Source of the DNA: an uncultured Candidatus Saccharibacteria bacterium | GTDB lineage: Bacteria > Patescibacteriota > CPR2 > UBA1875 > CAIMLA01 | NCBI GenBank assembly: GCA_964511435.1 | Contig: CAZEFH010000002.1 | Span: forward strand, 8,416-72,415 | DNA: 64,000 nt | Reading direction: 5' to 3' | Part shown: in pieces, positions 8,292-57,571 of the stretch | How the letters are laid out: each line of letters starts with the position of its first letter | Position numbering within the stretch: the first letter of the stretch is position 1 | Made by a program: the position numbers and the translations under genes | Notes under the pieces: model-generated | Databases searched by the model: none | Seen by the model: only the letters and a program-made list of their open reading frames with translations | What the model was told of the DNA's origin: nothing

Positions 8292-9265
8292 TGAAACAAA
8301 GCGTTAAGAGGCTATTAATAATAACAGGACTACTATTAATCTTTACTGTAGTCGGTGTTTCTCTATATATATTCGTAAAGAATAATCAAAGAACCGCCCT
8401 TACAAAAGAGCTTCTAAGTATTGTTCAATCGGAAAGATATGCAACAAAAACAGACCTTAGCGAATGTGCTGATAGTGAAGTTTCTGAAGCTTGTCTCGGC
8501 TCCAGTTTCTCGTATTTAATATCAGGTCTAGAGTTACAACTGAGGTATCTTGGTTCAGAGGCTACAGCGGAGATGTCAAAACTCTCAGACATTCAGATAG
8601 CTTATAAAAATACCCAGTGGTCGGTGGTTTCTGAAAAAACTAGATTGGCTATAGCGGCAAAAAACACTCTTATCGAGCAATATAGTAAGTCACATCTAGC
8701 AGACGCCAAGACTATAAAATCAAAGTACCCTAGCGTTTCAATATGCAATTACTACTTTTCGGGGAAATGGGCGGTAATAAGTTTGTGTCCAAAAGATTCA
8801 GATACTGCGAGCGTGATCCTTAAAAAAGGTGACAAATTAAAAGATTGGTCAATCTCTAGTGGCCCAGGAACTGATTTTTCAACAGGACAGTTAAGTGCAG
8901 TAAGTGTACCAGACGATATAATATTAGTAGTAAATGACCTTTATCCTGTCACTATTATACCCATTGGAAACATAACAAATACCACTCTTGGACCACTATC
9001 TATAATAACAAATGCAAAAGCTTCAAACGTCTCTGGTTTCAGCCTCCCAAATGAAGATTTACTACCATTTTATGGCAAGACTTTCAGCATAACTTCCCAG
9101 ATAATTAATAATCGCAAAATGTATGTTGTGAGTACTATTTCAGATAATGAAAAAGAACGGGAATCAAATATTAAGTTGGCTAAATCTTGGCTTACAAGAA
9201 ACGGCATCAATCCGGAGACTAGTCCCGTTTATTACGATCCACTCGATGAAGATACGGGGGAGTAA
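8291..9265 (+). CDS. Hypothetical membrane-anchored protein
   Basis: An N-terminal TM segment is present. The GTG start overlaps the previous stop. Confidence 0.4.
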   Translation: MKQSVKRLLIITGLLLIFTVVGVSLYIFVKNNQRTALTKELLSIVQSERYATKTDLSECADSEVSEACLGSSFSYLISGLELQLRYLGSEATAEMSKLSDIQIAYKNTQWSVVSEKTRLAIAAKNTLIEQYSKSHLADAKTIKSKYPSVSICNYYFSGKWAVISLCPKDSDTASVILKKGDKLKDWSISSGPGTDFSTGQLSAVSVPDDIILVVNDLYPVTIIPIGNITNTTLGPLSIITNAKASNVSGFSLPNEDLLPFYGKTFSITSQIINNRKMYVVSTISDNEKERESNIKLAKSWLTRNGINPETSPVYYDPLDEDTGE

Positions 9266-56278: not shown

Positions 56279-56536
56279 TTAGAGAGATTCTTGATGGTGA
56301 AGCTTTGATATAGTGGTGTAGAGACCCCAAATGGTGAGGATGATAGCGGTGACAGCGAGTCCGACCTTGAAGAATTTGTGCAGATGAAACGCTCGGTCAA
56401 GGATGATTCCAAGCATCTCGAGCACGGTCAGGGGTGCGACAAGGCGCCAAACAAGGTTGCGGGGCGTGATAGGAATACGTCCTTTTTTCTCTAACATAGC
56501 AAGAAACATTTTACTGTTTTCCGAGTTTGTGGACAA
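56279..56536 (-). CDS. Small two-TM membrane protein (a second AtpI/AtpZ-like candidate)
   Basis: It is an 85-aa protein with two TM helices and sits upstream of the atp operon. Confidence 0.35.
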   Translation of the reverse strand: MSTNSENSKMFLAMLEKKGRIPITPRNLVWRLVAPLTVLEMLGIILDRAFHLHKFFKVGLAVTAIILTIWGLYTTISKLHHQESL

Positions 56537-56555
56537 GATTTTCTTTAACCTTCCG

Positions 56556-56584
56556 TTGACGAAGAGGGTGATTTTTGCTATAAT
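56556..56584 (+). promoter_or_regulatory. Near-consensus sigma70-type promoter (TTGACG, 17-nt spacer, TATAAT) upstream of the intron-containing tRNA
   Basis: TTGACG lies at 56556..56561, the spacer was counted at 17 nt, and TATAAT lies at 56579..56584. Confidence 0.55.
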
Positions 56585-56707
56585 TTGCGAGTTGAAAACA
56601 ATAAGCAGTTAACAATAAACAAACATCAATGGGAACTGTTAATTGATTTCTGGTACCTGAAATTTGATTATATTCCCGGGTAGCTCAGCGGTAGAGCAGT
56701 TGGCTGT

Positions 56708-57226
56708 GTATACTAGTAACTTTTGTAGCTTGTAATAAACTGGAAGTATGGGCGACAAAAGAAAATATGCAGACCGTCGTGAATACTTGATAGCGGCAGT
56801 GTCTAAAAGAAGAAAACTTCTGCGGGCAAAGGCTATTGAATACAAAGGCGGAAAGTGTAGTATATGTGGCTACCACAAATGCGCAAATGCTCTTGATTTT
56901 CATCATTTATCAGGAAAAGACTTCAGTCTTTCCGCTGATGGAATGACGAGATCATGGGACAGAACAAGAACGGAGCTAGATAAGTGTATTCTAGTTTGCG
57001 CAAATTGCCACAGAGAAATCCATTCGCAGCTTCAGTCGGAAACGGTTGAATGAAAACTGGGTGAATTGCGGGAAACCCTAACGTTAAGTCGAGGGCAATC
57101 CGCAGCCAATCCTCATAATGAGGCAGGTTCAGAGACTAGGTGATTACACCCTAGAGCGCCCAGCACCTAAGGCATTAGCTATGGTGATGAGATAGTCCAC
57201 GCCTTGTAGAAATACTTGGATTAGTG
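56708..57226 (+). mobile_element. Group I intron (IC3-like, resembling the Azoarcus/cyanobacterial tRNA introns) carrying an HNH endonuclease ORF
   Basis: The 5' exon ends in U and the intron ends in G. The 3' core contains AATTGCGGGAAACCC, GTTCAGAGACTAG, CACCTAAGGCA and GCTATGG. These closely resemble conserved P3-P7-P9 elements of the Azoarcus tRNA-Ile intron. Confidence 0.7.
56748..57053 (+). CDS. HNH homing endonuclease encoded within the intron
   Basis: The zinc-finger and HNH motifs are CSICGYHKC...DFHHL and CANCHREIH. The length is 101 aa. Confidence 0.7.
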   Translation: MGDKRKYADRREYLIAAVSKRRKLLRAKAIEYKGGKCSICGYHKCANALDFHHLSGKDFSLSADGMTRSWDRTRTELDKCILVCANCHREIHSQLQSETVE

Positions 57227-57349
57227 TAACCAATTGGTCGTCGGTTCGAATCCGACCCCGGGAGCCAAATAAGAAGAGGCTTAATAAAGCCTTTTTTTGA
57301 TACCTATTTTCCTTAACCCCTATCGGACTTAGAACTTTTGAGTTAAAAT

Positions 57350-57571
57350 TTGGGTAATATGATTGAAAAAAATGTATTAGGGAATTACAAACATTTTAAG
57401 GGCGGTTTATACACGGTTATTGCAGTTGGGAAAGACTCTGAAAACTTAAGCGATGTTGTTGTCTATAAATCCAAAAAGGATGACGGTGTCTGGGTTAGGT
57501 CTTATGAGATGTTTTTTCAAGATGTTACGGTTGAAGGAAAAGTGATACCCCGTTTTCAAAAAATGGATTGA
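57350..57571 (+). CDS. DUF1653-family small protein
   Basis: The motif is YKHFKGGLY.VI......E......VVY. Confidence 0.6.
   Translation: MGNMIEKNVLGNYKHFKGGLYTVIAVGKDSENLSDVVVYKSKKDDGVWVRSYEMFFQDVTVEGKVIPRFQKMD

Follow-up and report, generated by a model that had tools for sequence, protein, structure and literature searches.

A group I intron carrying an HNH endonuclease gene in a tRNA-Asn gene of the Candidate Phyla Radiation

Introduction

Which transfer RNA (tRNA) is encoded by the interrupted gene near the end of the stretch of DNA printed above, what is the interruption, and what does the protein encoded inside it do? The stretch, called here the window, is a 64-kb piece of contig CAZEFH010000002.1, and its region 56400..57500 was inspected in detail. 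Our answer, which we consider highly probable, is that a self-splicing group I intron of 519 nt splits a tRNA-Asn(GUU) gene of a member of the Candidate Phyla Radiation (CPR) between tRNA positions 35 and 36, and that the loop of the first intron helix, P1, holds an intact gene for a homing endonuclease of the HNH family.

Introns of this kind have a recent literature. Nakagawa et al. (bioRxiv, July 2025, 10.1101/2025.07.03.662931; mSystems, January 2026, PMC13011429) examined 95 complete genomes of Patescibacteria and described group I introns at position 35/36 in 15 tRNA-Asn(GUU) and 3 tRNA-Asp genes. Four of the 15 Asn introns encode HNH endonucleases, and introns at 35/36 bearing a homing endonuclease gene (HEG) were reported from Patescibacteria only (PMC13011429). 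Self-splicing was shown in vitro and the ligated product was sequenced; the programs ARAGORN and tFind were found to mis-call many of these genes as tRNA-Thr(UGU) interrupted at 33/34 (PMC13011429). In the complete genomes the interrupted gene is usually the sole tRNA-Asn, and the tRNA introns of Patescibacteria are regarded as mostly immobile and retained (PMC13011429). The intron type "Asn.4Ug" is credited by these authors to the tFind preprint of 2020 (PMC13011429); the running text of that preprint does not mention Asn, and its table is an image. The author of an earlier note on this DNA had seen no report of a tRNA-Asn host for the intron class. HNH-bearing group I introns within tRNA-Asn genes were already published in 2025-26, and this claim to novelty fails. 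The element is a textbook case of a self-splicing intron that carries a homing endonuclease gene, and its host is no longer surprising; the breadth of the endonuclease family and its association with phages go beyond the published paper and are leads worth following.

The Interrupted tRNA-Asn Gene

ARAGORN in its default mode detected no tRNA across the 64-kb window. When the sequences 56674..56707 and 57227..57267 of the plus strand were joined in silico, the same program returned a 75-nt tRNA-Asn(GTT) with a full cloverleaf, the anticodon GUU, a terminal pair U1-A72, the discriminator G73 and an encoded CCA, in agreement with the exons and the fold proposed in the earlier note. Exon 1 (56674..56707) covers positions 1-35 and ends in C32 U33 G34 U35; exon 2 (57227..57267) covers positions 36-76, with the CCA at 57265-67. 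The insert between them (56708..57226, plus strand) is 519 nt long, follows U56707 and ends in G57226, as had also been noted.

Evidence for the exon junction comes from a relative. Loci that encode homologues of the HNH open reading frame (ORF) of the window were re-annotated, and these and the other contigs used for comparison bear L numbers here. The relative is the metagenomic contig L082, which encodes a LepA 90% identical to that of the window, and the gene order murJ-lepA-hemerythrin-(tRNA)-atp is common to both. At the same syntenic site L082 has an uninterrupted tRNA-Asn(GTT), to which the two window exons align at adjacent bases, 8881|8880, exon 1 occupying 8915..8881. The intron-less copy that the earlier note had advised looking for is therefore present in a relative of the window.

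A second boundary gives an intron of the same length and has to be weighed against the first. In intron-aware mode ARAGORN calls the window gene tRNA-Thr(TGT), i(33,519), in which the 519 nt are moved 2 nt upstream to lie between positions 33 and 34 (56706..57224). The boundary 56705|56706 ... 57224|57225 obeys the U/G rule too, with U56705 at -1 and G57224 as the last intron base, and 39 of 68 classified loci permit the same shift. The earlier note, which had read the anticodon loop as CUGU|UAA, overlooked this possibility, but the 35/36 boundary that it chose is upheld. All 68 classified loci can be read with the CTGT|...G|TAA junction, and 29 of them have no other boundary that obeys the U/G rule. 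Helix P9.0 (A57199-U57225 and C57200-G57224; 57199..57225, plus strand) is paired in 60 of 60 aligned sequences, the first pair being AU in 52, GC in 6 and GU in 2, and the second CG in 32, AU in 18, UA in 8 and GC in 2. Since P9.0 is paired throughout and both of its pairs covary, the terminal guanosine of the intron (omega-G) is fixed at 57226, two bases beyond the position that an intron in tRNA-Thr would require. In helix P1, U56707 lies opposite G57026, whereas U56705 faces A57028 and not a G. The discriminator is G in all 61 readable sequences, the window included, and the genes begin with UCC or UUCC; G73 together with U1-A72 is typical of bacterial tRNA-Asn. Spliced at 35/36, the window sequence is identical to the tRNA-Asn of L082 at 72 of 75 positions and the loop CTGTTAA is the same, whereas the Thr form agrees at 70 of 75 and its anticodon loop differs. 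For a published intron, sequencing of the spliced product proved the same mis-call wrong (Nakagawa et al., PMC13011429). There is thus next to no probability that the gene encodes tRNA-Thr(UGU), a reading that is already effectively refuted, and we regard it as nearly certain that a tRNA-Asn gene is interrupted here by a group I intron at 35/36. The only tRNA-Asn visible in the window is in this way either missed by ARAGORN in default mode or misnamed tRNA-Thr by standard tools, and such mis-annotation affects estimates of the tRNA complement and of the completeness of CPR genomes, as Nakagawa et al. stress.

Structure of the Ribozyme

The Rfam model Intron_gpI (RF00028) matches 56968..57219 over its full length (1-253) with 85.6 bits (E = 2e-20), the gathering score being 50. 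No other Rfam family was found in the window, and the covariance-model check that the earlier note had proposed supports a group I fold. A P2-P9 fold was built by hand and drawn on the window, and its 57 pairs were counted on an alignment of 60 relatives; as controls, the partners were slid by 1-3 columns and 500 shuffles were made. Standard pairs occupy 87.8% of the cells of the proposed helices, compared to 33-45% with slid partners, and the covariation score of 0.531, compared to 0.07-0.13 with slid partners, was reached by none of the 500 shuffles. Changes on both sides of a pair were seen in P2, P3, P4, P5, P6, P6a, P8, P9 and P9.0. The model score, a U.G wobble in P1, the placement of omega-G by P9.0 and the covarying core helices mark the insert as a group I intron.

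The 5′ strand of P1 is GGCUGU at the end of exon 1 (56702-56707), and it pairs with the internal guide sequence GCAGCU at 57026..57031; U56707, the U(-1) of the splice site, forms the G.U pair with G57026. Between the two strands lies L1, the loop of P1, which at 318 nt (56708..57025) houses the endonuclease ORF. L1 has 5 nt in an ORF-less relative validated in vitro and 9 nt in locus L061. In all 60 aligned relatives GCAGC is invariant and stands directly 5′ of P2, an arrangement shared by the validated intron, and the layout around it is constant: the HNH motif CH(R)E(I)H, a few codons, GCAGC(Y), a P2 capped by a GNRA loop, UGAAAA and then P3. P1 shows no covariation because its exon strand, the conserved anticodon loop, is almost invariant. 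An expected covariation of the anticodon-stem base 31 with the guide sequence was absent; relatives with A31 keep GCAGC, and so P1 is established by position and invariance rather than by covariation. Taking the longest run complementary to exon 1 as the guide sequence was also tried and rejected, the matches being mostly due to chance and including the conserved P4′/P6 block GCAGCCAA; the guide sequence was located instead with P2 and P3 as anchors.

Measured from the guide sequence to omega-G, the ribozyme has 201 nt in the window and 183-350 nt in its relatives, and all of its elements lie on the plus strand. P2 (57032..57049) pairs 57032-38 with 57043-49 under a GAAA tetraloop; it is paired in 89.5% of cells and all 7 of its 7 pairs change on both sides. 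P3 (57057..57163) pairs 57057-63 with 57157-63, is 88% paired with compensatory changes, and encloses P4 (57067-72/57099-104, 99% paired), P5 (57076-79/57092-95, 75%), P6 (57105-07/57126-28, 94%) and P6a (57111-15/57119-23, 91%), each of them with compensatory changes. The guanosine-binding helix P7 is formed by GACUA at 57134..57138 and UAGUC at 57193-57197, the 3′ strand extending as UAGUCC to 57198. It fits both the Rfam consensus and the Azoarcus intron, and since it is invariant in the 60 sequences it is uninformative for covariation. Between P7 and the 3′ strand of P3 there is a hairpin, P7.1 (GGUG-AUUA-CACC, 57139..57150), for which several pair types are found; it is only 64% paired because this region aligns poorly. 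Most relatives have a larger P7.1 plus a P7.2, and the window keeps a P7.1 of 4 bp and has lost P7.2. P8 (57164..57186, 92.6% paired) contains CCUAAG...UAUGG, which we take to be an 11-nt receptor for GAAA tetraloops, and L2 is likely to dock on it. P9, within 57199..57225, pairs 57202-08 with 57213-19 under a GAAA loop and is 88.5% paired. Omega-G itself (57226) is an invariant G followed by an invariant UAA, in the register set by P9.0 and by the empty site of L082.

Is the gene a dead copy, with an intron that has ceased to splice and a tRNA-Asn supplied from elsewhere in the genome? The points that tell against a functional ribozyme are a short P1, with 6 pairs of which two are G.U, a mismatch at the pair of base 31 in relatives with A31, and two U.U mismatches in the P9 of the window; in addition, P5 is without the receptor motif of some relatives, degraded copies exist elsewhere (L025 and L055 are examples), and only 64 kb of the genome can be seen. 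Set against these are the intact core helices, guide sequence, P9.0 and omega-G, and a promoter and terminator that are likewise intact, the promoter being conserved in L082. The published intron of GCA_016700035.1, whose sequence begins CTGT|uaaagGCAGCC... and has a 5-nt L1 (Nakagawa et al., supplementary table), splices in vitro; the window ribozyme is identical to it in 158 of 182 ungapped columns (86.8%) and the exons in 70 of 75 positions. That the interrupted gene is usually the only tRNA-Asn in complete genomes, as reported in the work cited above, also argues against a dispensable copy. A dead pseudogene is accordingly very improbable, and the window copy very likely splices.

In the proposed mechanism, transcription would begin at the TTGACG-17-TGcTATAAT promoter, and the exon end GGCUGU would pair with the guide GCAGCU across the 318-nt L1 to form P1, with the wobble U56707.G57026 as the splice-site pair. 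The compact core, about 200 nt from P2 to P9 with P7.1 included, would then fold, an exogenous guanosine would cleave after U56707, and omega-G57226, placed by P9.0, would direct exon ligation to give the loop CUGUUAA. RNase P would be expected to trim the 5′ leader and so yield the mature tRNA-Asn.

Relation to Other tRNA Introns

The earlier note had called the intron Azoarcus-type, and this label calls for qualification. The Azoarcus intron in tRNA-Ile(CAU), of subgroup IC3 (sequence from PMC8890501), is like that of the window a compact ribozyme of about 200 nt in the anticodon loop of a bacterial tRNA. Both have GAAA loops on P2 and P9 and CCUAAG...UAUGG in P8, and both contain AGAGACUAG, CACCUAAGGCA and GCUAUGGUGA...AUAGUCC in the same order. 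The blocks of P7, P8, J8/7 and P7′ match, with identical spacing from P8 to P7′, and from P8 through P7′ 26 of 32 non-N bases are the same, as counted by eye on the aligned blocks. All of the sequence blocks that the note had listed are present, GGGAAACC at 57070, GTTCAGAGACTAG at 57127, CACCTAAGGCA at 57164 and GCTATGG at 57178, but GGGAAACC is not homologous and was rejected as a common block: in the window it forms P4/J4-5/P5, in Azoarcus the loop L2. The Azoarcus intron differs in its tRNA and insertion site, is without an ORF, and lacks the 16-nt P7.1 insertion that the window has between P7 and P3′. Over the whole length, identity to Azoarcus is no higher than that of shuffled sequences (119 identical positions compared to 113.6 +/- 3.8); the global alignment placed P7 in the wrong register, and only the block-wise comparison is informative.

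Subgroup IC3 is defined by the absence of an insertion between P7 and P3′ and by overall similarity to the Azoarcus and cyanobacterial introns, and the window intron shows neither. Helices P7.1 and P7.2 between P7 and P3′ are, by the criterion of Michel and Westhof, the hallmark of subgroup IA. With subgroup models, 25 of 28 introns at 35/36 were placed in IA and none of the tRNA introns of Patescibacteria in IC (PMC13011429). The resemblance to Azoarcus is real for the 3′ part of the core, and as a class label it is inaccurate.

The closest published parallel is the set of Nakagawa et al. The window intron shares with it the phylum, the tRNA, the 35/36 site, the ARAGORN mis-call as Thr(UGU) and the arrangement of P1 and guide sequence, and these authors also draw a P7.1 helix; unlike their introns it has no P7.2 and a P7.1 of 4 bp only. 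The insertion site, the homology to validated introns and the host phylum place it among the tRNA-Asn 35/36 introns of Patescibacteria. The window genome appears not to be one of those they studied: an exact look-up of the ORF product in a collection of 15 billion proteins returned no contig. As to the host, LepA homologues 66-77% identical to that of the window are labelled "Patescibacteria group bacterium", one at 63% is from a Candidatus Howlettbacteria, and metagenomic ones reach 92%.

The HNH Protein and Its Gene

The ORF of 101 codons lies at 56748..57053 on the plus strand and begins 40 nt past the 5′ splice site. The earlier note had placed it there and named it HNH, and both statements hold, the second through matches to three PHROG profiles that are all annotated as HNH endonuclease: phrog_2255 (8e-26), phrog_3106 (7e-22) and phrog_35854 (1e-18). 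Its zinc-ribbon/HNH core consists of C37, C40, H52-H53, C84, N86, C87, H88 and H92. In an alignment of 46 homologues C37, C40, H52, C84, N86, C87, H88 and H92 are invariant and H53 is conserved in at least 90%, so that the catalytic His and the two CxxC zinc-binding pairs are all in place; the full-length ORF retains all 25 residues that are invariant in the family. The N-terminal ~32 residues form a conserved basic helix in the same alignment. A profile search of the Protein Data Bank sequences found the HNH regions of McrA (E = 2.5e-3) and of the endonuclease (En) domain of a group II intron maturase (E = 3.5e-3). An AlphaFold2 model (pLDDT 82.5) has two strands and a C-terminal helix, and its top Foldseek matches are all HNH nucleases, namely Cap5, the HNH domain of Cas9, T4 endonuclease VII and Gme HNH.

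Several observations weigh against the assignment. The Pfam HNH model PF01844 scored below its threshold (13.3 bits compared to 21.4, E = 0.099), a search of the ORF product against NCBIfam gave no match, the fold matches are individually weak (E >= 0.09), and in our reading of the alignment Lys79 seems to stand where the H-N-H motif canonically has its Asn. One homologue, P0017, does have a precomputed PF01844 match. Because the Pfam match of the window protein is below threshold, the assignment depends on other evidence: we accept the protein as a member of the HNH family on its profiles and motif, and the fold evidence is consistent with this without being decisive.

The gene is interlocked with the ribozyme. 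The guide sequence, P2 and J2/3 share their sequence with its last 9 codons and its stop (57051-53), and the CAG within the guide sequence is the codon of Gln94, which is conserved. Because guide sequence and P2 are part of the ORF, one and the same RNA could be translated or could fold and splice, but would not do both. In relatives the tail of the ORF reaches deeper into the core, and in a few loci the trace of the ORF passed the 3′ splice site.

Many relatives seem to have their own means of expressing the endonuclease. Of 63 loci, 17 have a perfect TATAAT that lies 4-12 nt before the ATG, where shuffled sequences gave 0.5 on average and 4 at most; a match at five of the six positions was seen in 31, where the shuffles averaged 7 and did not exceed 15, and it is often preceded by a TG. 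Many introns, among them those of L002, L006, L007, L009, L011, L013, L014, L019, L023, L026, L029, L030, L036 and others, have a TATAAT or TGnTATACT box that lies 6-9 nt before the ATG, and so has the free-standing copy of L061. The pattern suggests an internal promoter that in relatives would give a leaderless or nearly leaderless endonuclease mRNA. In the window itself, 56708-56747 has only a weak TGTAAT and no strong TATAAT, and a Shine-Dalgarno-like GGAAG stands merely 2-3 nt from the ATG. Because a strong box is missing and GGAAG is badly spaced, expression of the endonuclease in the window is uncertain.

Distribution of the Family in Bacteria and Phages

At least 3905 homologues of about 100-110 amino acids were found (E <= 1e-3, clustered at 90% identity). 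In a survey with one genome per species, relatives were found to be encoded in at least 569 genomes. Groups of Patescibacteria appear in the record titles, as do Nitrospira, Omnitrophota, Elusimicrobia, Acetothermia, Planctomycetia, Limisphaerales and Bacteroidota; among the records are a "delta proteobacterium" chromosome of 2.9 Mb and an Omnitrophota chromosome of 1.3 Mb. The taxon labels are those of the submitters, and binning errors are possible for some. Genomes with the labels Nitrospira, Omnitrophota, Elusimicrobia, Acetothermia and "delta proteobacterium" contain homologous tRNA-Asn introns with an HNH gene, whereas Nakagawa et al. had found HNH-bearing introns at 35/36 in Patescibacteria only. 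Loci with labels other than Patescibacteria include L045 (OY970063.1), L062 (CP070684.1), L012, L059, L072, L079 and L080 (all Nitrospira) and L060 (Acetothermia).

Genomic context was counted on the best 80 loci of the 569 or more genomes. At least 70 of these 80 sit in tRNA-Asn introns and none in any other gene. Automatic boundary finding placed the HNH ORF inside a tRNA-Asn 35/36 intron in 67 loci; both Asn exons were found by pattern in L003, L022, L073 and L075, exon 2 was found and exon 1 remained unmatched in L037 and L049, and in L052, L067 and L071 the locus is cut by the contig end with Asn exon 1 directly upstream. L025 is degraded, and L055, L061 and L065 hold free-standing or rearranged copies adjoining a tRNA-Asn.

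Free-standing HNH genes directly beside a tRNA-Asn were observed at L061:1224-1772, L117:517-1149, L091:1411-2267 and L065:3802-4290. In L061, L117 and L091 the adjoining tRNA-Asn is itself interrupted at 35/36 by a group I intron that is about 200 nt long and has no ORF; in L061 this intron measures 206 nt and the stop codon of the ORF overlaps the 5′ end of the tRNA. For L065 only the intron end and the 3′ exon were read. These copies look like intermediates between an arrangement found in phages, described below, and the ORF within L1. In the degraded locus (L025:700-1345) the ribozyme is cut off after P7 and fused to the 3′ end of a tRNA, and at L055:2208-2792 an intact tRNA-Asn without an intron, together with duplicated tRNA fragments, comes after the HNH ORF; both are either decay products or assembly artefacts. 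The contigs of L052, L067, L071 and L085 end inside the intron or just past it; the assembly could have broken there because members of a population differ in having the intron, or because it occurs in repeated copies. The contexts of the two closest HNH homologues were uninformative, their contigs also ending in or near the intron.

The viral collection contains at least 561 relatives of the window protein, of which the best 80 loci (L088..L167, contigs of IMG/VR) were counted. All except two of these loci, 78 of 80, lie in tRNA arrays. Downstream of the ORF a tRNA-Asn comes first in 37 of 75 loci, in 36 of these no more than 60 nt away, and a tRNA-Asn(GTT) adjoins the ORF on either side in 48 of 80; in the same loci tRNA-Asn makes up 76 of 521 tRNAs (15%). 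In 19 phage loci the ORF continues across the acceptor stem of the tRNA, whose U8-A9-G10 (TAG) supplies the stop codon. At L141:884-1202 a phage tRNA-Lys(TTT) was called with a 244-nt insert that holds the group I core motifs AGAGACTA and ATAGTCC.

HNH genes had already been noted in phage tRNA clusters, and we found no report in the literature that links a tRNA-Asn-associated HNH family to the endonuclease of tRNA-Asn introns. A comparable case is SegB of phage T4, a free-standing homing endonuclease of the GIY-YIG type that cuts tRNA genes and has its preferred site in the tRNA-Asn gene of phage T2L (PMC2330249). Like the phage relatives of the window protein it is encoded among phage tRNA genes; it differs in belonging to another nuclease family, in recognising the T-arm and in having no association with an intron (PMC2330249).

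Function of the Endonuclease and Origin of the Intron

The protein is encoded within, and in relatives beside, its putative target, and an intron-less allele of that target exists in L082. Most probably it acts on DNA as an endonuclease, with intron-less tRNA-Asn genes as the sites that it recognises. It would cut such genes, upon which the intron, or the endonuclease gene itself, would be copied in. Known systems offer partial models. The I-Ssp6803I family, encoded by the cyanobacterial tRNA-fMet intron, consists of PD-(D/E)XK endonucleases specific for the tRNA gene. That intron, in tRNA-fMet(CAU), is like the one of the window a group I intron in the anticodon loop of a bacterial tRNA that carries a homing endonuclease, and it differs in the fold of the enzyme, the 33/34 site, the tRNA and its subgroup, IC. 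I-HmuI and I-TevIII are HNH enzymes encoded inside group I introns of phages and are expected to nick or cut the intron-less allele; their hosts are protein-coding phage genes and they are larger, multi-domain proteins, whereas the window ORF specifies a minimal protein of 101 amino acids with a basic N-terminal helix and lies in L1.

The ribozyme might splice and the HNH protein nevertheless be inactive in homing in this genome. The protein would then be a decaying passenger, or would serve another role such as help in splicing or a different transaction of nucleic acids, and the intron would be inherited vertically. The window ORF is without the strong TATAAT box that 17-31 of 63 relatives have before the ATG and its ribosome-binding site is badly spaced; the published view that tRNA introns of Patescibacteria are mostly immobile and retained points the same way. 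The conserved basic helix of the first 32 residues could bind RNA as well as DNA. The intron resembles the host in base composition, and a comparison of the composition and third-codon-position GC content (GC3) of the ORF with host genes gave no clear sign of recent transfer. The difference between the window and L082 could also be due to loss of the intron rather than gain. This account has to reckon with an ORF that is full length and keeps every family-invariant residue, with a family that is very large and crosses phyla, with its attachment to tRNA-Asn in three genomic configurations, including phage tRNA arrays, and with an empty site in a relative as close as L082; moreover, we know of no HNH maturase. 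We consider it unlikely. The empty site together with the pattern of the family is the signature that would be expected of an active homing lineage, and the window protein is probably an active homing enzyme specific for tRNA-Asn genes.

A broader proposal, to which we give slightly less than an even chance, is that a single HNH lineage is dedicated to tRNA-Asn and occurs in three configurations, that phages serve as its reservoir and vector, and that the endonuclease cassette invaded a pre-existing intron. In the first configuration the gene would be free-standing in phage tRNA arrays, abutting an intron-less tRNA-Asn and often ending on U8-A9-G10; in the second it would stand beside a tRNA-Asn with an ORF-less 35/36 intron (L061, L117, L091, L065); in the third it would lie inside L1 of that intron, as in the window and in at least 70 of the 80 bacterial loci, from many phyla. 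The arrangements suggest that the cassette moves independently of the ribozyme. The intron of the window would then be composite, produced when a tRNA-Asn-specific cassette, often with its own TATAAT box for a leaderless mRNA, invaded an intron that was already there. If the three configurations are what they seem, HEG-bearing tRNA introns would be common and horizontally mobile far beyond Patescibacteria, contrary to the published inference, and if the family is indeed tied to tRNA-Asn both in and outside the intron, the picture of these introns as rare, confined to Patescibacteria and rarely transferred would have to be revised. The loci would also provide a natural series of intermediates for the colonisation of introns by endonuclease genes.

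Transcription Signals and Neighbouring Genes

A promoter of the sigma-70 type precedes the gene at 56556..56584 (plus strand), with the -35 element TTGACG at 56556-61, a 17-nt spacer, TG at 56577-78 and the -10 element TATAAT at 56579-84. It agrees with the consensus at 11 of 12 positions and has in addition the TG of an extended -10. The TTGACG-17-TATAAT promoter of the earlier note is thereby borne out, and L082 has kept a counterpart, TTGACC-17-TGcTATAAT, upstream of its intron-less tRNA-Asn. Transcription is predicted to start near 56591, which would give a leader of about 83 nt. After the CCA there is a terminator-like hairpin, AGGCUU-AAUA-AAGCCU, followed by six U (57277..57298, plus strand). 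It was read directly from the sequence, a scan having listed it on the minus strand only, and it would presumably serve as the terminator.

In the 5′ leader, 56636-56642 reads CTGTTAA and so repeats the 7-mer of the spliced anticodon loop, and near 56605-56616 there is GCAGTTAACAAT, which looks like the anticodon arm; both are probably due to chance, because neither is kept in L082. The neighbours of the tRNA gene in the window are the atp operon, lepA and murJ. Elsewhere on L082, at 401-1088 of the minus strand, ARAGORN calls a tRNA-Met(CAT) with a 612-nt insert. In loci L081, L083 and L084 the tRNA-Met at the corresponding site, upstream of tilS, is uninterrupted; that site falls beyond the end of the window. 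The tRNA-Met of L082 may represent a second presence/absence polymorphism of a long tRNA intron.

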